From positions 128,001 through 192,000 of the forward strand of contig OZ244799.1 of NCBI GenBank assembly GCA_965219955.1: a DNA stretch of 64,000 nucleotides. The letters are read 5' to 3'. The position numbers and the translations under genes were made by a program. The stretch is from a bacterium. Its GTDB lineage: Bacteria; UBA8248. The notes beneath the pieces were generated by a model. That model was given only the letters and a program-made list of their open reading frames with translations, ran no database searches and had not been told where the DNA came from. Shown here in pieces: positions 4,067-60,128 of the stretch (positions are counted from its first letter, which is position 1; the number at the start of each line of letters is the position of its first letter).

Positions 4067-4463
4067 GCGGATGTTGAAAAAGTCCCCCAAGAAGTTGTTG
4101 ATTCCCTCCAATCGAGAGTGTTCACCGTCATTCCGGCGAAAGCCGGAATCCATCCGCCTTTCGTTTTTATGGTGTAACCCCGACAAGAGGGGTTGGATGG
4201 GGCACGGCAAGGAGGGATGGGAAGATTGTTTTCCGATGTCCTGAGTAAGCGCCATATCACCCTCACCCTGAGTAGCCGCCGTAGGCGGCGTATCGAAGGG
4301 CGCTCCTCTCGGACAGGCGGCCGGCCTCCCTCGATACTACGCGCAAGCGCGCCTACTCGGGATGAGGAAGGTCGAACTCGACCGATGAGGGGTTGTAGAA
4401 AAGGCCCTTCTGACAAGGGGGGATAGGAGCGGCGCCCCCGACGAGGGCTTTTTCAACACCCCC
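4067..4463. mobile_element. MITE-like element carrying REP-like hairpins
   Basis: Left end GCGGATGTTGAAAAAG, right end CTTTTTCAACACCCCC, flanked by direct GTAG (4063-4066 and 4464-4467). Contains hairpin units at 4126-4152 and 4261-4367. Confidence 0.7.
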
Positions 4464-5419: not shown

Positions 5420-5696
5420 TTGGTTGTCCCCCCTGGGCCGCTTTATGACTCTTAAGTAAAAGGAAGATACGCATTGTATGAGGTCTCGGGTGGGGATTCA
5501 ATCCTTTATTTCGTGGTTTCCCGGGCGGCGTTTGATGGAGGCGCGCCCGTGGGATATAAATTTTCAGCCCGTGAGTCTGCGGCGCTTTCCGGCAGGGGGA
5601 GGCGATCTCCCTTCTTCCGGGGCGGAGGAGTAGAGGAGCGGGCCGAATGCGTTTTCGCCTGAGGGATGAGCCATGAATGCGCCGGAACCGGCGGAT

Positions 5697-6455
5697 ATGA
5701 AGGACAAGGTGGTCCTGGTGACGGGCGGTTCGCGCGGCATCGGCGCCGCCATTGCGAGGCGCTTCGCGAGAGAGGGCGCGCACCTGGCGTTGAACCACAG
5801 GGACGGGAAGGGCCGCTCCGCCCGGATGGCGGACGAGCTTTGCCGCGAGGCCGAAGCCGGTGGTGGACGGGCGGTCGCCATCCCTGCGGACATTTCGAAA
5901 AAAGACGCCGTCAAGACCATGTTCGCGCAGGTGGAAGAGGAGTTCGGGCGGCTCGACGTGCTCATCCTGAACGCGGCGCGCGCGCCCTTCAAGCCGTGGG
6001 AAAAGCTGTTGGAGCGCGACCTCAAGCTCCTGGTGGAGACGAATTTTCTGGGCAACGTCTTCTGCCTGCAGGGGGCGCTTCCGCTGCTCTCGCGCCGGGG
6101 CGGGACCGTGGTGTTCATCTCGAGTCTCGGGGGTCGTTTCCATCATCCCGAATATCCGCTGGGGCCCATGAAGGCGGCCATGGAAGCGGCGGTCAGGCAT
6201 TGGGCGGAGAGTTTTGAAGATAAAGGCGTATCGGTCAACGCCGTCTGCGCGGGGCTGGTGAAGACGGATTCGTTCAAGACGCTGCGCAGGATTCAGCCGG
6301 AACTGGACGCGCTGCCGGAGCGTTATTTCGTGACGCCCGAGGAGGTGGCCGAATCGGTCTATTTTCTCGCGGGCGCCGGCGCGGCTTCCATACGCGGGCA
6401 GACTCTCGTGGTCGACAGGGGACTCAGCAACCGCCTGAACCGCCCCCCGGGGTGA
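5697..6455 (+). CDS. SDR oxidoreductase, FabL-like (putative enoyl-ACP reductase)
   Basis: TGGSRGIG, LDVLILNAA and Y-x5-K (YPLGPMK); first gene of the lipid cluster. Alternative start at 5673. Confidence 0.75.
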   Translation: MKDKVVLVTGGSRGIGAAIARRFAREGAHLALNHRDGKGRSARMADELCREAEAGGGRAVAIPADISKKDAVKTMFAQVEEEFGRLDVLILNAARAPFKPWEKLLERDLKLLVETNFLGNVFCLQGALPLLSRRGGTVVFISSLGGRFHHPEYPLGPMKAAMEAAVRHWAESFEDKGVSVNAVCAGLVKTDSFKTLRRIQPELDALPERYFVTPEEVAESVYFLAGAGAASIRGQTLVVDRGLSNRLNRPPG

Positions 6456-6590
6456 TGGAGCGGTGGAGATTCCCCGGAGAAGGTTGATTTTCGCTCCCCT
6501 CCTTGGTTGTATACGCTTGGATGCGTGGGGAATGTTTGCATGCGTCCCTACACGAGGACGGGCCGCGCTTGATCGTTACAGAGGACAACC

Positions 6591-7154
6591 ATGTCGCAAA
6601 ACCTGGTATCAGACGATACGATTTTGGAAGAGGTGAAAAAGGCGATCGCCCACACCACGGGAATCGACGAGGAAACCATCGAGCCGGACAGCTCCCTGGT
6701 GGATGACCTGGGCGTCTTGTCGCTCGATTTTCTGGACGTGAACTTTCGCCTCGAACAGGTGTTCGGCATCAAGATGGCGCGTAATTTCGTCCTGGAGCAC
6801 GTGGAGGAGATGTTCGGCGAAGGCGTGGCCATCGACGAGGAGAGCGAGGTGACGGAAACAGGTGTCGAGGTCTTGAAGCTGCGCTTGAACGAAGCCGCTG
6901 CGGATCTCGAGCCCGGCATCCCCGTGGATGAGCTGCCGTCCCTCGTTACGCCGAAGACGCTGGCGGGCGCGGTGCGCGACGTGCTGAACTGCCTGCCCGA
7001 GAAGAGCCCTGCGGGGGCGGACTGGAAGGCCGAGGACGGGACGCGCATCGTCTGCGCGCAGACGAACGAGCCCGCCGCCTTGCCCAGCGGGGACGACGTG
7101 GTTCAGAACTGGCTGAACCGGCTGCAGGAGGAAAGAGGCCTCTTCTCCTCCTGA
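6591..7154 (+). CDS. Extended acyl carrier protein (187 aa)
   Basis: ACP core SSLVDDLGVLSLDFLDVNFRLEQVFGI followed by about 100 extra residues; GAGGA RBS. Confidence 0.85.
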   Translation: MSQNLVSDDTILEEVKKAIAHTTGIDEETIEPDSSLVDDLGVLSLDFLDVNFRLEQVFGIKMARNFVLEHVEEMFGEGVAIDEESEVTETGVEVLKLRLNEAAADLEPGIPVDELPSLVTPKTLAGAVRDVLNCLPEKSPAGADWKAEDGTRIVCAQTNEPAALPSGDDVVQNWLNRLQEERGLFSS

Positions 7155-7192
7155 GGCCGCGGGCTTCATCCAAGCCATTTTACCGGGAGAAC

Positions 7193-8509
7193 ATGGGAAT
7201 GGCCGGTAGCGGCAGACGGGTCGTGATCACCGGATACGGGGCGATGACGCCGCTGGGCGGGGACGTCGCCTCCACGTTCGACGCCGCGCGCGAGGGGCGC
7301 TCGGGAATCGACGTGGTCCGCCGCTTCGATCCCGAAAAACTTCCCTGCCGGATCGCCGGCGAGGTGGACGACGAATGGATCGTCTCGCAGGAGAACGGTG
7401 CTGCGCGCAGGCTCGATAAATTCTCCACCCGGGGCGTGCGGATGATGCGCGTGGCCGTATCCCAGGCGGCGCGCGCGGCGCGCCTGGATGAAGTTTCAGA
7501 GCGCAAGCGAATCGGCGTCGCGCTCGGCTCCCACGGCGACCACCCCGATGTCGAGGAGTTGCTCCGTATCTTCCCCTACTGGAAGCCGGAAGGCAGCGAT
7601 CCCTTGCAGGGCGGGTGGGACATCCAGGGACTCAAAAGCCGCGGCGCCTACGACCTGATGACGTTTTTCAGAAGAAAGTCCGACGTGGCGACCTCGGTCG
7701 TCGCTCTTGATTTCGACTGCCGGGGTCCCATGGTCTCCATCTGTTCGGCCTGCGCGGCGGGGGCGCAGGCGATCGGCGAATCGGTGCGCCTCATCCGCGA
7801 CGCGAAGGCCGACGTCATGGTGGCGGGCGGCTGCGAGGCGCCCATCACCTATGTCGGGTTTCTCGGCTTCGTCCTGCTCACCGCGCTCGTGGAGCGATAC
7901 GAAACCCCGCAGGGCGCGTCTCGGCCCTTCGACAGGAGGCGAAACGGCTTCGTGATGTCCGAAGGCGCGGGCGCGATGATACTCGAGAGCTACGAACACG
8001 CGCGTGCGCGAGGCGCCGAGGTCCTCGGCGAAGTGCTCGGCTACGGCGATTCCTCGGATGCGTTTCGCATCACCGACATGCACCCGAGGGGTCTGGGCGC
8101 GGTGTTCGCCATGAAAAAGGCGATCGAGGACGCGCGGCTCGCGCCCGATGCCGTCGAATACATCAACGCGCACGGCACCTCGACGCCCAAGAACGATTCC
8201 ACCGAAACCAGGGCCATCAAGGAGGTGTTCGGCGCCCACGCGGAGAAGATACCCGTCAGCTCGAATAAATCCATGATCGGCCACACCATCGGCGCGGCCG
8301 GGGCCGTCGAGGCGATTCTGGCCGTGGAGGGGATGCGCCGCTCGGAGATGCTGCCGACCATCAACTACCAGAACCGCGACCCCAAGTGCGACCTCGACTA
8401 CGTGCCCAACGAGACGAGGGCGCAGGCGCACCGCGTGGCTCTCTCCAACAGTTTCGGTTTCGGCGGGCAGAACGCCTGTCTTTGCCTGGGCGGTCCCGGG
8501 ATCGCGTGA
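7193..8509 (+). CDS. Beta-ketoacyl-ACP synthase (FabF-like, catalytic triad intact)
   Basis: [29 protein letters not shown] and NSFGFGGQN motifs. Confidence 0.93.
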
Positions 8510-9696
8510 GGTTGCCGCCCATTCCGATCACCGGCGCCGGCCTGGTAACGGCGGCCGGTCGAGGCGTCGAACCCGCCTGGAAGGCGCTTTGCGCGGGCCG
8601 CTCCCTCCTTACGCCGGATGCCGATCCCGAACTCGCCGGTTTTCCCCCCATCGAAACGGCGCGGTGCGCGCGGATCGATCCCGAATCCATCGGGGCGGAC
8701 CGCCGCGCGGCGAGAATCATGGGCCACCACACCCACATGCTCCTGGCGGCGATTCACGATGTGGCGGCTGAAGCCCCCGCCGGCCCGGCGGTTGCGGAAG
8801 AAGAAATCGCCTTTTTCGCGGGCATGGACTCGGTCGATCCGGGAAAAGACGATTTGGTGGGCGCGGTGAGGGAATCGGAAAGTCTGGTGGACCTGGGGCA
8901 TTTCTTCAGCGAGGGGATGGACGCCATCCCCCCGCTCTGGCCGCTCGGGTTGTTGAACGCGATTGGCTTCAGCCAGGCGGCGATTCAGCAGGGGTGGCGC
9001 GGCGAGAACGCCGTGTTCAGCGCGGGTCCGGAGGCGACGGCGCGCGCCGTCTGCGAGGCGGCGGACTCCGTGGGGGCGGGCAAGGCGAAGCTCGCTCTTT
9101 GCGCCGGTGTGAGCGGGGTGATTTCCGCCCGGATGCTGGCCCGTGCGCAGCGGGACGGTATCTGGCCCCGGGCCGGGGGGCTGGGCGAGGGAGCGGGCGT
9201 GATTCGCTTTGAGGAGCCCGGGGATGCCGACCCATCTGATATTCTTGGCTGGTTCAAGGGGCATTGCTCTGTTCGCGCGTTAGAAAAAAGAGGCGGCCTC
9301 GCGCGCGCGGTTCAGGAATCGGCCCGGGGAGCGCTCACAAGTGCTGGTCTCGAGCCCGATGATGTAGACCTCCTCGTGATTCATGGAGAAGGCGAATCCG
9401 GGGCGGATGGCGCGGAGGCGGAGGCGGTTTCCGCCGTTTTCGGGGCTCACAAACCTTGGGGGCTTGCGACGAAGGGCGTATTCGGCCACCTTTGGGGGGG
9501 AAGCCCGGCGCTGGACCTGATCATGGCGATAAAGGCGCTGGCCGAAGGCACGCCGCCCGCACCGCCCGCAGCGGCGGGCGGATTGTTTCGTGACGCGGCG
9601 GACGGCTCCGGGCGGAATGAGCTTAATAACGCGCTCGTGCTGCTTCAGGGCTTCGGCGGCGTATGCTCAGGGCTGGTGGTGGGAAAAAACGCTTGA
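8506..9696 (+). CDS. Ketosynthase-like protein lacking the catalytic Cys (chain-length-factor-like)
   Basis: GTG start overlaps the upstream TGA. KS-fold motifs (ITGAGLVT, GEGAG, KGVFGH, GFGG) are present, but FSAGPEAT replaces the SAC motif. Confidence 0.8.
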   Translation: MRLPPIPITGAGLVTAAGRGVEPAWKALCAGRSLLTPDADPELAGFPPIETARCARIDPESIGADRRAARIMGHHTHMLLAAIHDVAAEAPAGPAVAEEEIAFFAGMDSVDPGKDDLVGAVRESESLVDLGHFFSEGMDAIPPLWPLGLLNAIGFSQAAIQQGWRGENAVFSAGPEATARAVCEAADSVGAGKAKLALCAGVSGVISARMLARAQRDGIWPRAGGLGEGAGVIRFEEPGDADPSDILGWFKGHCSVRALEKRGGLARAVQESARGALTSAGLEPDDVDLLVIHGEGESGADGAEAEAVSAVFGAHKPWGLATKGVFGHLWGGSPALDLIMAIKALAEGTPPAPPAAAGGLFRDAADGSGRNELNNALVLLQGFGGVCSGLVVGKNA

Positions 9697-9711
9697 CGGG
9701 AGAACGGGAAA

Positions 9712-10164
9712 TTGCGGTTTCTCTTTTTCGATCAGATCAAGGAGGTGGTGCGCGGCGAGCGCATCGTGGGGGTCAAGACCTTTCCGCTCTCGGAAGCGTA
9801 CCTGAACGGCCATTTCAGCCGTGCCCCCCGCGTGCCCGGCTCGGTTCTCATCGAGGCGATGGCGCAGATTACGGGGTGGCTCGTGGTCTACACCCATGAT
9901 TTCAGGACTTCGTGCGTCATCTCGCTCATCGACGACGTGGAGGTGGCGAGCGACCTGCGCCCGGGCCTCTCCGTTGAGATTCATGGCGAGATAATCGATA
10001 CGAACGAACGGGCGAGCCTGTGCCGCGCGCGAATCGAAAAAGACGGCATCGCCGTGGCCAGGGCCGAGCGGTTCGTGTATCCCCACTTTCCCAACGACGA
10101 TCCCGAGAGCCTGAGGGAGCGCTTCAGGAGCTACGGCTGGCTGGCGTTCGAGGGGACGGCATGA
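9712..10164 (+). CDS. FabZ/FabA-like 3-hydroxyacyl-ACP dehydratase
   Basis: RFLFFDQI start; GHFSRAPRVPGSVLIEAMAQ contains the His/Glu dyad. Confidence 0.88.
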   Translation: MRFLFFDQIKEVVRGERIVGVKTFPLSEAYLNGHFSRAPRVPGSVLIEAMAQITGWLVVYTHDFRTSCVISLIDDVEVASDLRPGLSVEIHGEIIDTNERASLCRARIEKDGIAVARAERFVYPHFPNDDPESLRERFRSYGWLAFEGTA

Positions 10165-11426
10165 GCGCGCAGGTGTTCATTACCGGTCTCGGCATGGTGA
10201 CCTCCCTGGGCGCCGACGTGGAGACTTGCTGGCAACGGGCGCTGGCCGGCGAATCGGGCCTCGCGCCGATCACGTCTTTCGACGCGAAGGCGCTGCCCGT
10301 CGCCGGAGCGGGCGAGGTTTCAGAGGAGACGCTCCGCGCCATCAGGGAGAGGCTGCCCGAGGAATACGCGGCGGCGGGGGAGCGCAGGGTGTTGTTCGCG
10401 CTCGACGCCGCGCAGAACGCGATGACGGACGCCGGAATGCGCCCCGGCGATTATGCCCCCGAACGCGCGGGCGTGGTGATGGGGACCGGGTTGAGCAGCT
10501 ACCGGCTGGAGGATTTCGCCGCCTGGGCGGACCCTGAAAACGGCTTCGACGCCGCCCGCTTCGCCAGAGAGCTCGATATGACGCAGGCCTCCGGCTACTT
10601 CAACAACCCGCCCGAGCGGGCGACCTCATTGATGGCGGAGTGGTTCGAACTCGCCGGCCCCACAGGCACCATCACCTCCGCCTGCGCGGCGGCGGGTCAG
10701 GCGATTGGCATCGGGATGCGCATGATCCGAAGGGGCGAGGCGGACGTGGTTCTTTGCGGCGGGGCCGATTCGATGATCCACCCCGTCGGGATGGCCATAT
10801 TCCTCCTGCTGGGCGCGGCCTCCAAATCGAAAGCCCCCATCTGCCGCCCGTTCGACAGAAGACGCTCCGGCCTCGCCGTGGGCGAAGGGGCGGGCGTGGT
10901 GGTTCTGGAATCACAAGACCATGCGCGCGCGCGGGGCGCTGCGCCCTACGCCGCTTTGTCGGGCTACGGCGCGAGCATGGACGCCCATCAGGTGACGGCG
11001 CCGCACCCGGCGGGGCGGGGCGCCGTTCGGTCGATGAGCGAAGCGATGGAAGATGCGGGCCTGGCTCCTGATGATGTCGCCTACGTCAACGCGCACGGCA
11101 CGGGCACGAAACTGAACGATCCGGTCGAGACCAGGGCGATTCGCGAGGTGTTCGGCGCGCGGGCGGATGCGCTGGCGGTGAGTTCGTCCAAATCCATGAT
11201 CGGGCATCTCATCGCCGCCTGCGGCGCGCCCGAGTTCATCTTCACGGCCTTGAGCGTCGCGCGCGACATCGTGCATCCTACGACGTGCCTTGAGAACCCG
11301 GACCCGAAGTGCGATCTCGACTACGTGGCCGGGGGGGCGAGGGAGATGCCCGTACCCGCCGCCATCACGAATTCCTTTGGTTTCGGCGGGCAAAACGCCA
11401 CCTTGCTCGTGAGGAAGGCGGCCTAG
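10161..11426 (+). CDS. Beta-ketoacyl-ACP synthase (FabF-like, catalytic triad intact)
   Basis: ATG at 10161 (ATGA overlap); TSACAAAGQAIG, NAHGTGT, SMIGHL and NSFGFGGQN motifs. Confidence 0.93.
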   Translation: MSAQVFITGLGMVTSLGADVETCWQRALAGESGLAPITSFDAKALPVAGAGEVSEETLRAIRERLPEEYAAAGERRVLFALDAAQNAMTDAGMRPGDYAPERAGVVMGTGLSSYRLEDFAAWADPENGFDAARFARELDMTQASGYFNNPPERATSLMAEWFELAGPTGTITSACAAAGQAIGIGMRMIRRGEADVVLCGGADSMIHPVGMAIFLLLGAASKSKAPICRPFDRRRSGLAVGEGAGVVVLESQDHARARGAAPYAALSGYGASMDAHQVTAPHPAGRGAVRSMSEAMEDAGLAPDDVAYVNAHGTGTKLNDPVETRAIREVFGARADALAVSSSKSMIGHLIAACGAPEFIFTALSVARDIVHPTTCLENPDPKCDLDYVAGGAREMPVPAAITNSFGFGGQNATLLVRKAA

Positions 11427-11443
11427 ATGAGGGGTAATACGGA

Positions 11444-12196
11444 ATGAAAATCGATTTGAGCGGAAAAATCGCGCTGGTGACCGGAGGCGGGCGGGGCATC
11501 GGGCGCGCCTGCTGTACGGCCCTGGCCGAGGCGGGCGCCTCCGTGGCGGTCAACTACAGCCGCTCGGCGGAGGCCGCCGAGGAGGTAAAGGGGGAGATCG
11601 AGGCGGCCGGCGGGCAGGCGAATACCTATCAGGCCGACGTCTCCTCTTTCGAGGACGTATCGGCGATGTTCGAGCGGGTGAAGGCGGATTTCGGCACGCT
11701 CGACATCCTGGTGAACAACGCGGGCGTGATACAGGACGGCTTGCTGCTCACCATGAAGCCCTCAGGCTGGCGCAAGGTGCTCGGCGTGAGCCTGGACGGC
11801 GCTTACCACTGCACGAAGGCGGCGGGCGAGATCATGCTCAGGAAGCGCTCCGGCAAGGTGATCAGCATCTCCTCCGTCATGGGGGTTTCGGGCGGGGCCG
11901 GGCAGACGAACTACGCCTCCGCCAAGGCGGGCATCATCGCCTTCATGCGCGCCTGCGCGGCGGAGATGGGAAAGCGGGGCATCCAGTTCAACACGATTTT
12001 GCCGGGCATGATCGTCACCGACATGAGCGAGCGCGTGCGCGAGAAGGGCGGCGACGTGATTATGGGGCGCATACCGGCGGGCCGCTTCGGCGAACCCGAG
12101 GACGTGGCCAGGCTCGTGGTGTTCCTGGCTTCTGCGGAATCGGATTACATCAACGGCCAGGCGATAGCCGTGGACGGCGGCCTGCTCACGGGCTGA
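11444..12196 (+). CDS. fabG: 3-oxoacyl-ACP reductase
   Basis: TGGGRGIG, LVNNAG, GQTNYASAKAG and PGMIVTDM motifs. Confidence 0.88.
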   Translation: MKIDLSGKIALVTGGGRGIGRACCTALAEAGASVAVNYSRSAEAAEEVKGEIEAAGGQANTYQADVSSFEDVSAMFERVKADFGTLDILVNNAGVIQDGLLLTMKPSGWRKVLGVSLDGAYHCTKAAGEIMLRKRSGKVISISSVMGVSGGAGQTNYASAKAGIIAFMRACAAEMGKRGIQFNTILPGMIVTDMSERVREKGGDVIMGRIPAGRFGEPEDVARLVVFLASAESDYINGQAIAVDGGLLTG

Positions 12197-12214
12197 GCGC
12201 GGGAGATTGTTTTG

Positions 12215-12631
12215 ATGCGTCTGTACCAGGGGGTGGATTTGGTGGAGGTGGCGCGGCTGAAAGAGGCCTACGAGCGTCACGAGGCGTTCGGCGAGGACGT
12301 GTTCACCGAAGCCGAGCGGGCGTATTGCTTGAAGCGCCGGAACCCCTATCCCCACTTCGCGGCCCGCTTCGCGGCGAAAGAAGCCTGCCTCAAGGCCTTC
12401 GGACTCGGCATTTCCGAGCCGGGCGGGCTGGGCGGCCGGGGCCGCCTGCGCGAGATCGAGGTGGAATCGGCGGCCTCCGGCAAGCCGACGCTCAAACTGA
12501 GCGGTTCGATGGAGCGCATGAGCGCGCGAAAGAAGATCACCCAATCCACCGTTTCGATGAGCCATACGCTGGAATTGGCGGTGGCCCAGGTGATCCTCCT
12601 GGGCGACGACGCGCCGGAAGATGCCGGCTAG
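12215..12631 (+). CDS. acpS: Holo-ACP synthase (phosphopantetheinyl transferase)
   Basis: GVDLVEV, FAARFAAKEACLKA, GKP and SMSH motifs. Confidence 0.93.
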   Translation: MRLYQGVDLVEVARLKEAYERHEAFGEDVFTEAERAYCLKRRNPYPHFAARFAAKEACLKAFGLGISEPGGLGGRGRLREIEVESAASGKPTLKLSGSMERMSARKKITQSTVSMSHTLELAVAQVILLGDDAPEDAG

Positions 12632-12643
12632 GGGGTCGTTGTT

Positions 12644-13096
12644 TTGAGATACATGCTCGTGGACAGGGTGACGGCGTGGGAGGCGGGTGTCTCCATCCAG
12701 GGGGTGAAGAACGTCACCATGAGCGAGGATTTTCTGGAATTCCATTTCCCCCGGTTCCCCGTCATGCCGGGCGCGCTGCTGTTCGAGGGGCTGGTGCAAC
12801 TCGCCGGCTGGCTCGAGGCGGCAGGCTCCGATTTCACCCGGTGGATTCTTTTGGAAAAGGTTCGAAGCGTCAGGTACTATGGATTCGCCTTTCCGGGGGA
12901 TCAGGTGCTCCTGGGCGTGGAGGCGCGCGAAGAGGAAGAGGGGCTGAAACATTTCAGGGGCGTGGCCACCGTGGAGGGGGAACGCCGTGTGGTCGCCGAT
13001 TTTGCCGGAAGGGTTGCGCCGCTCGCGGATTATGAGGATCCCGAGGAGCAGCGCCATCATTTTCGCGTTCTCGGACGCGAAATTCGGTTGAGCTAG
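12644..13096 (+). CDS. FabZ-like 3-hydroxyacyl-ACP dehydratase
   Basis: RYMLVDRV, KNVTMSE and HFPRFPVMPGALLFEGLVQ motifs; TTG start. Confidence 0.9.
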   Translation: MRYMLVDRVTAWEAGVSIQGVKNVTMSEDFLEFHFPRFPVMPGALLFEGLVQLAGWLEAAGSDFTRWILLEKVRSVRYYGFAFPGDQVLLGVEAREEEEGLKHFRGVATVEGERRVVADFAGRVAPLADYEDPEEQRHHFRVLGREIRLS

Positions 13097-13108
13097 GCGG
13101 GATGAGCG

Positions 13109-14407
13109 ATGCGGGGCGCGGAAGTGTGGATAACGGGCGTGGGGCTGCTGACCTCCGTGGGCGAGAGCGCCGGGGAGAACTGGGCGTCGCTCCGCGCCGG
13201 GAGAAGCGGCATCGCCCATCACCCGAGCGAGGAAAACGGGACCCTTCCGGATAACTTCTTCTACCATGGCGCAGTCCCCGGCCATCAGGACCCGCCCGAG
13301 GTGCCGCCCAAACTCGCGAGCCAGCGGAAATTCCTGAACAGAAGCTCCATTCTGGGGCTTTACGCCGCGGCCGAGGCGGTGGCCTGCGCCGGCCTCGACA
13401 TGAGCGATGTGGCGCCCGACAGAAAATCCCTCTACGTGGGTTCGGGCGATTTCACCAGGGTGGGCTACGTGGATTTCTACGCGGCGCTCAAACAGACGGC
13501 GGGCGAAGCGTGGGACGCGCCCGAGCCCGCTTCCCTCAACGAAGCGGCGCTCCACAGGGTGAGCCCGTTTTTCCTGCTCGAGGGCCTGCCCAACAACCTT
13601 TTCAGCTACCTTTCGGCCATGTACGAATTCATGGGACCGAACGGCAGTTTTTCCAGCCTGTCCTCGTGCGGCGCGCAGGCGCTCGAGAACTGCGACCGCG
13701 TGCTGCGCTTCGGCGAGGCCGACGTCGGCCTGGTCGTGGGCTGCGGGAGCTGGGCGCACCCCATGGTGCTCCTGGAACTCGACGGCCTGGGCATTCTCTC
13801 CCGGGCGAAAGAGGGGGCGGCCTCGTTCCGGCCCTTCGACAGAAGGCGCGACGGGTTCTTCCCCGGAGAGGGCGCCGCCGCCCTGGTGCTCGAGAGCGCC
13901 GAATCCGCCCGTGCGCGGGGTGCCAGGCCCCTGGGCCGCGTCCTGGGGACGGCGAATTGCCAGGAATTCTCCTCTGATCGCTATATCCCCGTTCCCACCG
14001 GAGCGGTGCGCCGTTCGCTGGAATCGGCGATGGCGGAGGCGGACCTGGCGTCCGGCGATCTGGCTTTCATCCTTCCCCACGGGAGCGCGACGCCCCAGGG
14101 CGACGCGGGCGAATTGTCCGCCTTGCTGGAATACGGCGACAAGGCGAAGGACCCGGTTCCGCTTGCCGGCTGGAAGCCTTATACGGGACACATGGGCTCC
14201 GCCAGCGATTTGGCCGAGATCGTACTGGGGCTCTGCGCCATGAAAGACGGCCGCCTTCCGCCCACGCCGGGCTTTGAGCAAAAAGACGATGCCTTCGAGG
14301 CCCTCCACATCTCCACCGAGGAATGCGCCGTCGCGGGGGCCGCGTTCCTGTCCCTGAGTCACGGCATCGGCGGGCAATCCTCCGCGACCATCGTCGCCGC
14401 ACCGTGA
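13109..14407 (+). CDS. Ketosynthase-like protein with Ser at the catalytic Cys position (chain-length-factor-like)
   Basis: KS fold (RPFDRRRDG, GEGAAA, PHGSAT, YTGHMG). SLSSCGAQA aligns to SACAAGAQA, with Ser replacing the nucleophile and a Cys two residues later. Confidence 0.85.
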   Translation: MRGAEVWITGVGLLTSVGESAGENWASLRAGRSGIAHHPSEENGTLPDNFFYHGAVPGHQDPPEVPPKLASQRKFLNRSSILGLYAAAEAVACAGLDMSDVAPDRKSLYVGSGDFTRVGYVDFYAALKQTAGEAWDAPEPASLNEAALHRVSPFFLLEGLPNNLFSYLSAMYEFMGPNGSFSSLSSCGAQALENCDRVLRFGEADVGLVVGCGSWAHPMVLLELDGLGILSRAKEGAASFRPFDRRRDGFFPGEGAAALVLESAESARARGARPLGRVLGTANCQEFSSDRYIPVPTGAVRRSLESAMAEADLASGDLAFILPHGSATPQGDAGELSALLEYGDKAKDPVPLAGWKPYTGHMGSASDLAEIVLGLCAMKDGRLPPTPGFEQKDDAFEALHISTEECAVAGAAFLSLSHGIGGQSSATIVAAP

Positions 14408-15390
14408 GCGAATCCTCGAAACGCCCCAGGAGAAAGCGCAGCAAGGACAAGGGCGCGTTTCACCAATGGGTGGAATACGCCTTGCTCGTTTCTTTTCTGA
14501 AGTTCATCCGCCTGCTGCCCTACGGGGTTTGCCGCGCGGTCGCCGCCGTGACGGGGGAGGCGATTTTCCGGTTCGCTCCGAGGAGAAGACGCATCGCGCG
14601 CGCCAACCTGCGCATCGCGTTTCCCGAGCTCGACGAGGCGCAGCGCCTGAATCTTGCGAGGCGCAGTTGCCGCTCATTCATCCTCACCTGCCTGGAGGGA
14701 GCGAAGTTTCTCACCCGCTTCGAGTTGCGGCGCGCGGAGAAAACGGTGCGCGATATAGTGGACGGGGCGGAAGAGGCGATAGAAAAGGCGCGCGCGATTC
14801 ATGAGGATGCGGGCGGCTGCGTGTTCGTCGTGCCCCATCTGGGGAACTGGGAATACCTCGCCCATGCCGGCGCGCTGGCGGGAATTCCGCTGAGCATCCC
14901 CGTCCGCCCCCTGGACAACCGGAAGCTCGAAGCGTTGCTGTATGAAATGCGCGCGTCTTCGGGGCAGGAGATACTCGCCAAGAAAAACGCTTTCTTTCAT
15001 TTGCGCGAGGCGCTGCGCAAGGGCCGTTCGGTGGCGATTCTCGCGGATCAGAACGCGGGCGGAGAGGGGATAGACGCGCCGTTTTTCGGCAAGCCCGCCA
15101 GGACGACGCCCGCCCCCGCTGCGCTCGCCGTTCTCTACAACCGGCCCATCGTCCTGATCTCGTGCCTGAGAAAAGGCGACGCCCAGCGCTATGAGGTCTT
15201 GCTCGGCGAACCGATAGCGCCCGATATGAACGCCCAAAGCGCCAGGAAGGAAATCGAGAGGCTCACGAGGGCAATGAACGTGGAGACGGAAAACTTCATC
15301 CGAAGAGGGCCCGATCAGTATCTATGGATTCACGACAGGTGGAAACTCACCAAAAGCCAGGGTCGGGCGCGCTGGACCGATTCAGGCTGA
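14404..15390 (+). CDS. LpxL/HtrB-family (lipid A-type) acyltransferase
   Basis: GTG overlaps the upstream stop; ARANLRIAFPEL, PHLGNWE, LADQ, PFFG and PDQYLWIHDRWK motifs. Confidence 0.9.
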   Translation: MSESSKRPRRKRSKDKGAFHQWVEYALLVSFLKFIRLLPYGVCRAVAAVTGEAIFRFAPRRRRIARANLRIAFPELDEAQRLNLARRSCRSFILTCLEGAKFLTRFELRRAEKTVRDIVDGAEEAIEKARAIHEDAGGCVFVVPHLGNWEYLAHAGALAGIPLSIPVRPLDNRKLEALLYEMRASSGQEILAKKNAFFHLREALRKGRSVAILADQNAGGEGIDAPFFGKPARTTPAPAALAVLYNRPIVLISCLRKGDAQRYEVLLGEPIAPDMNAQSARKEIERLTRAMNVETENFIRRGPDQYLWIHDRWKLTKSQGRARWTDSG

Positions 15391-15789
15391 GGGAGAAGCG
15401 GAGGAAGCGGTTTCTTTCAGATGCCTGAAGAAGGGAACCCCCAGTTTTTCGAGTTTCGCCTCGAGCTTTTCCGTGCAGTCGCAATCCCCGCAGACGGGAT
15501 AGCCCTCGCAATCCTCCGGTTTCCGGGCGAAGCGCACGTCGATTTCCTCGAAATACGCCTCCCAGTAGGGCAGTTCCTCGTACAACTCATAACCCGGCCC
15601 GAACGCCTCCCGGCAGTAGCAGACCTCGAGCCAGCGAACCTGGCCTTTCTCGGTGAGCCTCGCCTCTTTCATGCATTTCAGGAAGGTTCTGTGCGCGATG
15701 GAGCCTCGCCCGAGTTCGCCGGACTCGATGGCTTCGAGAAGAGCGTCGCTTTTCCCCTCGATGACTTTTCCGCGCACCAGATAACGCAT
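15382..15789 (-). CDS. Cys-rich hypothetical protein
   Basis: 135 aa with GGAGG RBS and protein-like composition; WLEVCYC, PYWEAYF and C-x5-C-x2-C-x-C motifs. Confidence 0.75.
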   Translation of the reverse strand: MRYLVRGKVIEGKSDALLEAIESGELGRGSIAHRTFLKCMKEARLTEKGQVRWLEVCYCREAFGPGYELYEELPYWEAYFEEIDVRFARKPEDCEGYPVCGDCDCTEKLEAKLEKLGVPFFRHLKETASSASPSA

Positions 15790-44356: not shown

Positions 44357-46087
44357 GTGAACGAATCTATGGAATCCGGGCCGGATTCATCCGGCGATAA
44401 GGACTCATTCGCGGGCAAGGACAGAAGGGGACGCTCCCAGCGCCGCAGAAGAAGACGCGGCCGGAGGGGCGGAAAACGTCCGGAACACAAAGAAAATCAG
44501 AATACATCCGGGAGAGCCGAACCCGCCGCGCAATCGCAAAACGGGGAGAAAGCCGCCCAGCGCCCTGAAAACGGGGGCGCGCGCGACCCCGATTCCCGGC
44601 GCAGGCGAGGCGGGCGCAAGGGGAGGAACCGCTCGCGCGGGGAGCGGAGGCAACGGCCCAAACCCCAGGTCATCATCGCCGATCTGCCCGATACGAACGG
44701 CGCGCCCGTTCTGGTGGACACCCACGCCCATCTCATCGACAAGGCGTTCGATCCGGATCGCCAGGGGGCGGTGGAGCGCGCCATCGAGGAGAGGGTGCAC
44801 TACATCATATCGATGGGCACCTGCCTGGAGTCGAGCCGCCAAACCCTCGACCTGGCAGCCTCCTACGCCGGCGTCTACGCGGCGGTCGGCGTTCATCCGA
44901 GCGACGTCAAGGACGTGAACGAGCGGACCATCCGGGAGATCGCCAGGCTCGCGGAGGAACCCAAAGCGGTGGCCGTCGGCGAGATCGGGCTGGACTACTA
45001 CCGCGAGGGCGCCCCGCGCAAGACCCAGCGCAGGTGGTTCCGGGAGCAAATCAGGGTGGCCGTCGATGTGGGCAAGCCCATCGTCGTCCATTGCCGCGAC
45101 TCTGCGGATGACATCTATGAGGTTCTGGAAGAAGAAAAGGCGTGGCGCGCGGGCGGCGTCATCCACTGCTTCACGGGCGATGACGAGCAGGCCCGGAAAT
45201 TCCTGGACATCGATTTTCACCTGGGCGCGGGCGGGGCCATCACCTTTTCGCGCTCGGAAGAGTTGAGGGAAGTCTTCGAGCGGGTTCCCGTAGAGCGCGT
45301 GCTGCTCGAGACGGACAGTCCCTATCTCGCCCCGCCGCCGCACCGGGGCAAGCGGAACGAACCGGCCTACGTCGCTCGCGTGGCGGAGACCCTGGCCGAG
45401 CTCCACGGAATAACGACGGAGGAGGTCACGCGCCTCACCACCGAGAATGTGCGCCGCCTGTTCGGGATAGGGCCGGAGCCTGATGGGGGGAGCATCGCCT
45501 ACGCGGTCGGCGAGACGCTCTACCTCAACGTGACGAACGATTGCCAGAATTCGTGTTTTTTCTGCGGGCTCCTGAGCGATTGCGTCTACAAGGGCCACAA
45601 TCTGAAACTCGAAAAAGACCCCGACGCGGCTGAGGTGCTCGCCGCCGCCGGCGACCCGACCCGCTTCGCCGAGGTCGTCTTCAGCGGATTCGGCGAGCCG
45701 ACGCTCAGGCTCGACGTGGTGAAGGAGGTGGCCGGCGAACTCAAGCGCCGCGGCGCCAGGCGGATCCGCCTGGTGACGAACGGGCTCGCGAACAAGACGC
45801 ACGAGAGGAACATCCTGCCCGAGCTGGGCGGCCTCGTGGACGCGATATCCATCAGCATGCAGGCGGAAAGCCCGGAAGCCTACGCGAAGGTCTGCAAGAC
45901 CAAAGACATCGAAGAACCCTACCCGCTGGTCAAGGAATTCGTGAGGTGGTCCAAGAACTACATCCCCGAGGTGGAGGTAACCGCCGTCAAGATGAGCGGC
46001 CTCATCGACATCGAAGCGTGCGAGAAGGTGGCGACGGAAGAACTGGGCGTGCCCTTCCGCGCGCATGATTACGTGAGGATGGATTAG
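44357..46087 (+). CDS. tatD: TatD nuclease fused to a TatD-associated radical SAM domain, with Arg-rich N-terminal extension
   Basis: VDTHAH, GEIGLDY, VHCR, IHCF and LETDSPYL (TatD); YLNVTNDCQNSCFFC (CxxxCxxC) and FSGFGEPT (radical SAM). Start uncertain. Confidence 0.88.
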   Translation: MNESMESGPDSSGDKDSFAGKDRRGRSQRRRRRRGRRGGKRPEHKENQNTSGRAEPAAQSQNGEKAAQRPENGGARDPDSRRRRGGRKGRNRSRGERRQRPKPQVIIADLPDTNGAPVLVDTHAHLIDKAFDPDRQGAVERAIEERVHYIISMGTCLESSRQTLDLAASYAGVYAAVGVHPSDVKDVNERTIREIARLAEEPKAVAVGEIGLDYYREGAPRKTQRRWFREQIRVAVDVGKPIVVHCRDSADDIYEVLEEEKAWRAGGVIHCFTGDDEQARKFLDIDFHLGAGGAITFSRSEELREVFERVPVERVLLETDSPYLAPPPHRGKRNEPAYVARVAETLAELHGITTEEVTRLTTENVRRLFGIGPEPDGGSIAYAVGETLYLNVTNDCQNSCFFCGLLSDCVYKGHNLKLEKDPDAAEVLAAAGDPTRFAEVVFSGFGEPTLRLDVVKEVAGELKRRGARRIRLVTNGLANKTHERNILPELGGLVDAISISMQAESPEAYAKVCKTKDIEEPYPLVKEFVRWSKNYIPEVEVTAVKMSGLIDIEACEKVATEELGVPFRAHDYVRMD

Positions 46088-54047: not shown

Positions 54048-55662
54048 CAGCCTGTCGGGCTTTGGCCTGCCAAGGAGTTCGAAGCACCAATCGTGGGAGT
54101 GATTTTCGGGGTTCTTCTCGGTAATCGATTCTTGTTGGCCGGCGATTCGGTGTCAGGAGCCATGATCGGCCCTCACAGGCCCGGTGGGAGTCATAGCGGC
54201 CGGCAACAGGCCACGGGACGAGGGCGTTTATCCTCCGATCACGCCGACTTCAGGTTGTGCAGACGCTTGCAGTTATAAGCCAGCATCACCAGGACCCACT
54301 CGCCCTGCACCTTCTCGAGACCGCGCAAGAGGAACTGCCGGAAGCCCATCGCCTGCTTGACGATGCCGAACACCGGCTCCACCGTCTGCCGCCGCAGGCG
54401 ATAACGGGCGCGCTCTTCCGGCTTCGCCATCTTCGCGCGCATCGCCGCAATCCACTCCGCTCGAACTTCCGGACCTGGCCGGGAAGCCACCGGTGGCCGG
54501 AAGTCGTGCCGACGGCGCCCCCCTTCGGCTTGCGTGGCCACCAGAACCTCGACGCCCCGTCTCTCGAGTTCTTCCACTTCGCTGCCCGTCGCGTAGCCGC
54601 TGTCCGCCAACACACGCGCCGGCGCGGCAACCGAAGGCGGAATCGCCTCCACGTCCGCCACCAGTTCCCCGCGGTCGCTCGCGTTGTTGCTCACACGCGC
54701 TCCCAGCACCAACTGGCTGCCTTCGGCATCCACCACCGCCTGCGCGTTGTACGCCTGGCGATACTCGTGACGCTTGCTCTTGCGCATCAAGGCGCTGTCC
54801 CCATCCGTCAGGTTGATCTGCCGCCCCTCTTCGGGCTTCTCCCGAGGGGGCTTGATGCGCGGACCCTTCCTCCGACCTGAACGGCGCTCCCGAGACGCCG
54901 CCTTGCGTTCATATTCCGCCCGACCCGCCTCGGCCGACCTCTTCGCGCGGCGCTCCAGTTCCGCGCACGCCGCATCCAGCTTCGACTTCAACTCCTCGCG
55001 ACGCGCCAACTCCTCCGGCAGCGCCTGCGGATCCCCTACCTCCTGCGCATCTTCGCTCTCCGCACGCTCCAGCAACTCCTCGACCTCTCCGCGCAATTGA
55101 GAGCCCAACGCCTGCGCACGGTCATACCGGACGTTGTTGTGCTTGCTCGCGTTCGCGTCCACCTTCGTCCCGTCCACGCTCACCGTCCCGACCCGCAACA
55201 ACTTCAACTCCTTCGCCAGCAGCAAAACCTGCTCGAACGTCTCCGCTATCGCCTCGAAGTTATCGCGACGGAACGCGCAGATCGTGTCGTGGTCCGGGTG
55301 TGTGTTCGACGCCACGTATCGAACCCCGATATCCCGGTACGTCGCGCGCTCGATCCGGCGCGAACCGAATATCCCGTTCGCGTAGCAGTAAATCAGCAGC
55401 GCCAGCATCATCCGGGGATGGTACTGCGCTGAACCCGTGCCGCGCTCGTTCACGCGGAATGACCCCAGAGGCACCCGTTCCACCGCCTCCACTACGAAGT
55501 GCGCCAGATCGTCCTCCGGCAACCACTCCCGCATGTCCACAGGAAGAAGATACAACTGCGACTGATTACAATCTACAAACTTCGCCACCCCAATCCCCTC
55601 CCTTAAAAATACCTCGCGAGAACGACATATTATAAAAGGTAGGGCCTAAGTCCGACAGGCTG
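54048..55662 (-). mobile_element. IS1182-family insertion sequence, 1615 bp
   Basis: Inverted ends CAGCCTGTCGGGCTTTGGCC / GGCCTAAGTCCGACAGGCTG (18/20 match); CTAG duplicated at 54044-54047 and 55663-55666. Confidence 0.92.
54239..55588 (-). CDS. IS1182-family DDE transposase
   Basis: YHPRMMLALLIYCY, SRRIE, PDHDTICAFR, VDGTKV, YNAQAVVD, LADSGY and VEPVFG motifs. Confidence 0.93.
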   Translation of the reverse strand: MAKFVDCNQSQLYLLPVDMREWLPEDDLAHFVVEAVERVPLGSFRVNERGTGSAQYHPRMMLALLIYCYANGIFGSRRIERATYRDIGVRYVASNTHPDHDTICAFRRDNFEAIAETFEQVLLLAKELKLLRVGTVSVDGTKVDANASKHNNVRYDRAQALGSQLRGEVEELLERAESEDAQEVGDPQALPEELARREELKSKLDAACAELERRAKRSAEAGRAEYERKAASRERRSGRRKGPRIKPPREKPEEGRQINLTDGDSALMRKSKRHEYRQAYNAQAVVDAEGSQLVLGARVSNNASDRGELVADVEAIPPSVAAPARVLADSGYATGSEVEELERRGVEVLVATQAEGGRRRHDFRPPVASRPGPEVRAEWIAAMRAKMAKPEERARYRLRRQTVEPVFGIVKQAMGFRQFLLRGLEKVQGEWVLVMLAYNCKRLHNLKSA

Positions 55663-59849: not shown

Positions 59850-60128
59850 TCAATGGTAGTCGAGGTAATCCACGTCGACTACGTCCCCTTCTTCGAACCG
59901 AAAGGTCACCCGCCAGTTCCCCGAAACCGTCACGGCGTAATGGCCCCTCAGTTCACCCTTTAGTGGATGGAGCCGGAAACCGGGAATATTGACGTCCTTC
60001 GGTCGCCGACTCCTGTCGAGAACGGCTAGGATATCTCTCAGTTTCTCAACATGCCCCGGCGCCACCCGCCGCGCCGTTCGGCCATCGTAGAGTGCTTTCA
60101 GGCCCCGATGTTTGAAAGACGCGATCAT
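59850..60128 (-). CDS. higB: HigB (RelE-like) toxin
   Basis: MIASFKHRGLK, PGFRLHPLKG, VSGNWRVTFRF and DYH; toxin-first gene order. Confidence 0.92.
   Translation of the reverse strand: MIASFKHRGLKALYDGRTARRVAPGHVEKLRDILAVLDRSRRPKDVNIPGFRLHPLKGELRGHYAVTVSGNWRVTFRFEEGDVVDVDYLDYH

Follow-up and report, generated by a model that had tools for sequence, protein, structure and literature searches.

The 64-kb window analysed here (positions 128,001 to 192,000 of contig OZ244799.1, assembly GCA_965219955.1, from a bacterium of the lineage UBA8248) carries a cluster of 11 open reading frames (ORFs), g1 to g11, all on the + strand and occupying positions 5673/5697-15390. Pfam and NCBIfam assignments identified a short-chain dehydrogenase/reductase (SDR), an acyl carrier protein (ACP), four ketosynthase (KS)-family proteins, two FabZ-like dehydratases, FabG, AcpS and a PF03279 acyltransferase, and so bear out the families and the co-oriented, often overlapping arrangement given in a preliminary description of this stretch. 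The junctions g3/g4, g5/g6 and g10/g11 overlap by 4 nucleotides (nts), the last if g11 starts at the GTG at 14404, and the remaining gaps are 12-38 nts, except for the 135 nts between g1 and g2. As had been stated in that description, the Pfam/NCBIfam scan of the cluster found no radical SAM, desaturase, methyltransferase or ligase gene (a starter ligase included) among the 11. Neither FabD nor FabH is encoded among g1-g11, and no release enzyme other than g11 was found among the module genes.

The carrier protein, ketosynthases and modifying enzymes

The ACP, g2 (6591..7154; PF00550), is 187 amino acids (aa) long, and its attachment site Ser44 was invariant in all 71 ACPs aligned out of 117 homologues found. 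An insert of approximately 50 residues separates helix II from the last carrier helices, which precede a zinc-ribbon-like C-terminal domain (predicted local distance difference test score, pLDDT, of the model 90.6). By a simple pattern count, two CxxC knuckles (Cys4) occur in 47 of 52 distant homologues, one additional distant homologue being a window artefact, and in none of the 19 close ones, the g2 of the present window included. Metal binding by the C-terminal domain is a prediction from the Cys pattern, and the Cys4 zinc knuckle has decayed in the source lineage. Folded alone, this domain gave a pLDDT of 63.8 and no significant match, and the weak rows were mostly zinc ribbons (TFIIB, eL43). 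The best PDB matches of g2, by sequence and by Foldseek, were to the specialised ACP RPA2022, which we take to be an AcpXL and which also aligned the most residues in a wider fold search (97, Z 10.4); AcpXL of S. meliloti is 51% identical to g2 over 51 residues. A profile search recovered a wider family of ~130-aa ACPs with the insert alone, some of them named Planctomycetota, and of 185-200-aa ACPs. The ~130-aa form with the insert and without the knuckle is widespread (proteins P0222-P0264), and in genome G030 a second cluster (L137) combines a 135-aa ACP with a g6-like KS and FabG-like and FabZ-like genes. The insert and the knuckle had escaped the preliminary description, as had the koreenceine-type relative treated below. 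In the literature searched, with limited reach into subscription papers, no paper on the 11-gene module or on a zinc-ribbon ACP was found.

The residue counts for the module enzymes include close kin, and the rows are not independent. Two of the KSs have the Cys-His-His triad: in g3 (7193..8509) the Cys was found in 50 of 50 rows and each His in 49 of 50, and in g6 (10161..11426) the triad was intact in 33 of 33. The fast-evolving, chain-length-factor (CLF)-like g4 (8506..9696) lacks the Cys in all 36 rows and mostly retains both His, and g10 (13109..14407) has the Cys replaced by Ser and keeps His-Lys-His, each of the four residues being present in 42 of 42 rows; the alignments thus confirmed the Cys-less and the Cys-to-Ser KS reported previously. 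A KS with the Cys-to-Ser change acts as a decarboxylase (PksF type), and g10 is a candidate malonyl-ACP decarboxylase and primer source. In the trees the four KSs formed separate clades apart from FabF; that of g3 was supported by 98/99, and g6 fell together with the koreenceine-type cluster's second active KS (91/90, unstarred). The KS tree of 76 rows was built quickly and carried long-branch warnings, and it does not settle the placement of g4 and g10 with respect to FabF2XL or the CLFs of the koreenceine (kec) cluster.

The most likely KS/inactive-KS heterodimers are g6 with g4 and g3 with g10, because g4 and g6 are lost and moved together and g10 stays with g3. Both g4 and g6 are missing genome-wide in two Syntrophobacteraceae drafts, which have three KS matches only, and from the locus in four related drafts, counted as one event; g10 remains with g3 where the two are lost. 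In addition, g4-g5-g6 are relocated as a block in G019 and G024, and g4 and g6 lie within ~3 kb of each other in G021 and G031. On the other hand, g4 is split from g6 in G012 and G013, and the koreenceine paper proposes pairing of adjacent KSs, contrary to this assignment (PMC6498172).

Both FabZ-like dehydratases (PF07977) retain the catalytic His and Glu, in 40 of 40 rows for g5 (9712..10164) and 42 of 42 for g9 (12644..13096). In one metagenome-assembled genome, g5 and g6 are read as one 608-aa FabZ-KS ORF (L042:13450-15273), by fusion or assembly error; they are separate in the relative L044. The first gene, g1 (5697..6455, alternative ATG 5673), is an SDR with Tyr-x5-Lys invariant in 46 of 46 homologues; its best NCBIfam model is FabL PRK08063 (183 bits versus a cut-off of 328), and it is a putative enoyl-ACP reductase on the strength of that FabL-like score. 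The remaining enzymes are FabG (g7, 11444..12196), AcpS (g8, 12215..12631) and the LpxL/LpxXL-family acyltransferase (g11, 14404..15390).

Conservation, natural deletions and shared genes

A genome scan with the ACP as query gave 50 loci, and because the complete 11-gene set appears in unchanged order in 25 of them, the order is more than chance; most of the other loci were truncated or split. The 25 consist of 21 close relatives (labels including Nitrospinota), one metagenome-assembled genome (MAG) labelled 'Chloroflexota', two delta-proteobacterial MAGs and one NC10 MAG, and the four from other phyla show ~35-60% identity. Depositors label the close homologues as Nitrospinota or Ca. Tectomicrobia. 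Within the phylum, the ACP is present in 35 of the 41 other genomes of the family and in 0 of 9 outside it. A plasmid search with the ACP core and an E. coli search with g3 DNA gave no match.

Six genomes of the family are without the ACP, of which one is 67% complete and uninformative. The informative ones are G064 (98% complete, same genus) and G073-G076 (90-97% complete), and these five, which are two deletion events and not five, offer a built-in control. All retain fabG-acpS-lpxL inside identical flanks (four loci were read; G076 was judged by coordinates), a g1 orthologue was absent in 5 of 5 (best match 33-37%), and each of the three tested has a single KS. In G064 an in-frame scar, in which the beginning of g9 runs into the final part of g10, shows that the module was lost rather than ancestrally absent. 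The deletion pattern shows that g1-g6, g9 and g10 are dispensable and that g7, g8 and g11 are not.

The genome, one 4.28-Mb contig, has a separate housekeeping operon, plsX-fabH-fabD-acpP-fabF, and a canonical fabZ in the operon lpxD-fabZ-lpxA-(oxidoreductase)-lpxI-lpxB-waaA-lpxK. Thus the module genes are not the genome's only fab genes, a case that the preliminary description had named as fatal to its reading, and their KSs stand apart from FabF. Two of the genes surviving deletion are nevertheless the genome's principal copies. The best TIGR01830 match in the genome is g7 (280 bits, under the cut-off of 298), which is retained, and is the best FabG match, in 5 of 5 deletion genomes. In G000, G064 and G073, the family members whose housekeeping fab operon was read, this operon does not contain fabG. 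It does contain the gene in three relatives that fall outside the family, and likewise in three of the four genomes from other phyla that bear the module; in the fourth, the housekeeping region showed just a FabF-like gene. The sole TIGR00516 match is g8, which is kept after module loss; across the phylum, 49 of 51 genomes have just one such match. A second phosphopantetheinyl transferase of the genome lies beside a 3502-aa type I polyketide synthase (PKS) with small ACPs (L003:6048-17788). Neither the genome nor the family yielded a clear FabI or FabK, even where g1 is absent (FabI best 27-38%; FabK-like 146 of 453 bits, a match absent in three relatives).

The status of g7 and g8 and the lack of a clear FabI or FabK would fit a reading of all 11 as the housekeeping fab genes. 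We give this reading almost no weight, as it is contradicted for eight of the eleven genes by the canonical operon and fabZ and by the near-complete relatives that live without the long ACP and g1, and it is true only for fabG, acpS and probably lpxL. Given the separate housekeeping genes, the module is accessory; it is not self-contained, because it is without FabD and FabH and supplies the best or sole copies of fabG, acpS and lpxL in the genome, and the word 'self-contained' in the preliminary description must be given up. In the best explanation, the module displaced the ancestral fabG and lpxL in the source family, and g7, g8 and g11 also serve housekeeping roles.

The terminal acyltransferase and lipid A

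The genome's sole PF03279 match is g11 (175 bits). Its His-x4-Glu dyad is invariant in 35 of 35 rows, and lpxC, lpxA, lpxD, lpxI, lpxB, waaA and lpxK are all encoded in the genome, so that family score, dyad and pathway agree on its membership. It follows g10 immediately in 32 of the 34 loci with g10, and two truncated loci continue into it; the acyltransferase is therefore syntenic with the cluster in relatives, a matter on which the preliminary description had made its reading depend. Among module-bearing genomes, lpxB is present in 30 of 31, and the module ends within ~6 kb of it in 4 of 31; the lpxB-adjacent regions read were chosen partly for that proximity. In G018, g4-g11 run directly into lpxB-waaA-lpxK on the same strand, and in G014 they do so after a ~1-kb gap (both Nitrospirota), and in two delta-proteobacterial MAGs the module is convergent with the lpx operon. 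We considered the 'Chloroflexota' MAG, which bears the complete module, as a counter-example lacking lipid A and rejected it, as it has lpxB, waaA and lpxK; this MAG may be mislabelled.

A carefully built tree of 30 proteins placed the module-linked g11 proteins of five or more phyla in one clade (100/98), sister to two rhizobial LpxXL (90/93, unstarred). Joint descent with the other LpxL genes of the phylum was rejected (approximately unbiased test, p 2.7e-6; the group was named after the tree had been seen). Since g11 groups across phyla with the module and not with the LpxL of the phylum, it came in together with the module and took the place of the ancestral gene. Two claims of the preliminary description are supported, namely a dedicated acyl chain loaded onto lipid A and the analogy with acpXL-lpxXL; that description thus stands in part, having failed on self-containment and, as given below, on ladderane-type parts.

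The cluster is probably an accessory type II fatty-acid/polyketide module that makes a special acyl chain, which g11 would put on a secondary position of lipid A. From the observed gene content, residues, synteny, single-copy status, phylogeny and deletion pattern, we infer every chemical step, the KS pairings and the acceptor as follows. AcpS (g8) would activate the long ACP (g2), housekeeping FabD would supply malonyl, and the primer would come from decarboxylation by g10 (Ser-His-His) or be a medium-chain acyl group drawn from housekeeping synthesis. The heterodimers g3+g10 and g6+g4 would elongate the chain, FabG (g7), FabZ (g5, g9) and the FabL-like g1 would reduce it mostly or fully, and g11 would move it onto a lipid A precursor of the lpx pathway.

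The main rival holds that g11 is an ordinary LpxL acting on housekeeping acyl-AcpP and that the chain of the module goes to another lipid or small molecule via an unlinked enzyme. It would explain why g11, fabG and acpS survive both deletion events and why exactly one PF03279 gene is found in 49 of 51 phylum genomes, module present or not; moreover, the koreenceine-type relative off-loads its chain differently, and in four Nitrospirota loci a gene with a weak condensation-domain match follows g11. We nevertheless consider it improbable, because g11 belongs to a cross-phylum, module-linked clade apart from the phylum's LpxL, the module has no other release enzyme, and LpxXL itself shows the same fallback to ordinary chains, loading 16:0, 18:0 or 18:1 in fabF2XL and adhA2XL mutants (PMC11901934). 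By analogy, the retention of g11 after module loss matches this fallback, and g11 probably accepts ordinary acyl-AcpP once the module is lost. The Nitrospirota genes (L058:2796-4091, L059:4553-5878, L065:9479-10777 and one in L060) encode a ~435-aa protein, possibly a further acyltransferase by its domain match, which has no homologue in the source genome.

Several observations weigh against the assignment of the chain to lipid A. Retention of g11 after module loss means that it is useful without g2, which fits a plain LpxL too. The sister grouping of g11 and LpxXL is unstarred with an identity of just 26%, and PF03279 includes enzymes that do not act on lipid A, such as PatA. In three Magnetobacterium-type drafts g10 has no g11 behind it (g11 is unlinked), and in one of them, G019, no g11-clade gene was found, though all four KSs are present. 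Every XL family model stayed below its cut-off: g2 scored 50.5 bits with the AcpXL model PRK06508, still its best model (cut-off 83; S. meliloti AcpXL 189.5), g3 336 of 629 bits and g10 80 of 320 with the FabF1XL and FabF2XL models PRK06501 and PRK06519, and g11 132 bits with its best model PRK06553 (cut-off 273). In the trees, the module KSs do not group with FabF1XL or FabF2XL. Finally, the same core of ACP and four KSs feeds an aminotransferase-reductase in Pseudomonas, and the core by itself implies neither lipid A nor a long chain.

In the lpx operon of the genome, the oxidoreductase between lpxA and lpxI (L002:13633-14601) has a UDP-GlcNAc 3-dehydrogenase as its best model, below the cut-off, which suggests a diamino-glucose lipid A backbone made with an enzyme in the role of GnnA. 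Both flanks are unrelated to the module: upstream lies a divergent PAC2-family gene, and downstream one for a conserved 135-aa protein (15382-15789, - strand), to which neither Pfam nor NCBIfam gave a match and which is found converging on g11 throughout the family, in the deletion genomes as well. The GC content of the cluster matches that of the window, and promoter and terminator scans gave results at chance level. In three metatranscriptome runs from two studies, which share 10-14% of words and stem from near relatives, contigs match parts of most module genes and of the flanks; as DNA carry-over is possible, we do not count them as evidence. Contig depth in these runs is very high at a repeat stretch near 4124-4367, where two intergenic repeats lie at 4124-4155 (~270 near-full genome matches) and 4258-4367 (168 partial matches). 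The rest of the window holds housekeeping genes, with a TatD-radical SAM fusion (44357-46084), a DDE transposase (54242-55588) and a HigB-type toxin-antitoxin gene (59853-60128).

Comparison with known clusters

We compared the module with the rhizobial cluster for very-long-chain fatty acids (VLCFA), acpXL-fabZXL-fabF2XL-fabF1XL-adhA2XL-lpxXL (PMC11901934), using the S. meliloti copy (L069). Both have a special ACP with the same helix-II signature, a FabZ paralogue, a Cys-less KS upstream of an active KS, a terminal LpxL-family transferase and a probable fallback to ordinary chains. In contrast to the rhizobial ACP of 95 aa, g2 has 187 aa with the insert and the zinc-ribbon domain, and there are four KSs and two FabZs in the module against two and one. 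SDR reductases stand in place of AdhA2XL; no AdhA2XL-type zinc dehydrogenase was found among the 11 genes, and elsewhere in the genome there are unlinked homologues of 28-34%. The characteristic product of the rhizobial cluster is a C26-C34 (omega-1)-hydroxy chain on lipid A. The module works like acpXL-lpxXL but is not a member of that cluster family.

Starting from a distantly related long ACP of Pseudomonas, we reached 35 loci in metagenomes and one in Photobacterium, and read ten of them. These loci contain a long ACP, KS, dead KS, KS, dead KS, a class III aminotransferase fusion of ~960 aa (seen as an ORF in five loci and characterised in three) and two SDRs; the copy in Photobacterium, whose ACP is shorter, has LolA-like and MMPL genes behind it. 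We matched the Pseudomonas and Photobacterium loci (L070-L101) to kec by gene content and order (kecA-H), not by sequence. For the kecA-K type II PKS of Pseudomonas koreensis, a C10 starter lengthened by two malonyl units has been proposed as the route to C14 alkaloids, and the koreenceine products are C14 tetrahydropyridines formed via an aminotransferase-reductase fusion (PMC6498172). In P. putida, PP_2777 (of PP_2777-2784) has an unusual predicted structure (PMC12490732).

A koreenceine-type ACP with the Cys4 knuckle aligns end to end with g2 (23% over 177 aa, E 2e-16), and the order KS/dead/KS/dead and a g6-related KS are also common to both; the module likewise has two KS and two CLF-like genes behind its long ACP. 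The kec loci read are without FabZ, AcpS and an LpxL-type gene, all of which the module has, whereas the KecF aminotransferase-reductase is not in the cluster, and its matches in the genome extend over no more than 319 of its 958 residues, with 25-33% identity. Since a relative with the long ACP makes C14 products, this ACP does not prove a very long chain. We lean slightly towards a chain that is shorter-extended or partly reduced; one of C24 or more, as in rhizobia, falls a little short of an even chance. It is rather unlikely, although worth stating, that the module is a polyketide-type synthase tailoring lipid A, in which a koreenceine-type core is joined to an LpxXL-like transferase and yields an undescribed chain instead of a rhizobial-type hydroxy-VLCFA. 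Under such a lipid-A-tailoring reading, also doubtful, the hosts would be Nitrospirota, Desulfobacterota, NC10 and the source lineage, and one heterodimer would carry the Ser-His-His decarboxylase subunit.

The preliminary description had spoken of ladderane-cluster-type parts. Anammox cluster I indeed has a dedicated ACP, a FabZ paralogue and an active and an inactive FabF in common with the module (PMC10139942, 10.64898/2026.05.19.726425), and its FabF pair is a KS/CLF-like heterodimer that decarboxylates malonyl-ACP (10.64898/2026.05.19.726425). The anammox ACP 7auf was among the top fold matches of g2 (Z 11.8, rmsd 1.4, 78 aligned), but it was tied with unrelated generic carriers and was not among the 39 sequence matches (E 1e-3), and the claim is not sustained. 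The amxACP is a carrier of normal size, amxFabFmut is without both His that g10 keeps, and cluster I has B12 radical SAM and phytoene-dehydrogenase-like genes, neither of which is in the module. The aryl polyene (APE) cluster of E. coli CFT073 (L107) likewise has several KS genes, FabG, a dehydratase, dedicated ACPs and lipid anchoring; its acyl-CoA synthetase, methyltransferase, glycosyltransferase, thioesterase, MMPL and LolA genes are absent from the module, which has an enoyl-reductase-like gene instead.

A polyene product, either APE-like or a ladderane-precursor chain in the manner of anammox cluster I, would be in keeping with two dehydratases, the KS/inactive-KS pairs, the anammox heterodimer and the fold match. 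It is very unlikely, as the cluster has no radical SAM, phytoene-dehydrogenase-like, ligase, methyltransferase, glycosyltransferase or export gene, the enoyl-reductase-like gene is conserved beside the ACP, the anammox ACP is missing from the sequence matches, and the APE KSs are long, unresolved branches in the tree. No specific tie of the module to ladderane or APE clusters was found, and the module is without the defining genes of the ladderane (PMC10139942, PMC2649909), APE and koreenceine clusters.

What is known of dedicated lipid A acyl chains comes mainly from alphaproteobacteria, in which the outer membrane is weakened when these chains are lost (PMC11901934). The module suggests that such a strategy exists in at least five more phyla with different machinery, and the predicted, unreported lipid could be a biomarker for uncultured lineages. 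It would also link the koreenceine PKS core, the oddly built ACP included, to envelope biosynthesis, and bring two candidate KS/CLF pairs into a fatty-acid pathway, a feature which a preprint calls first shown in anammox (10.64898/2026.05.19.726425). The KS/inactive-KS logic is common to the anammox, rhizobial and koreenceine clusters alike. If the rather unlikely reading of a polyketide-type synthase tailoring lipid A is true, the long-ACP core would be a portable chain-building chassis with swappable off-loading enzymes, which would serve an alkaloid in Pseudomonas and an outer-membrane lipid here.

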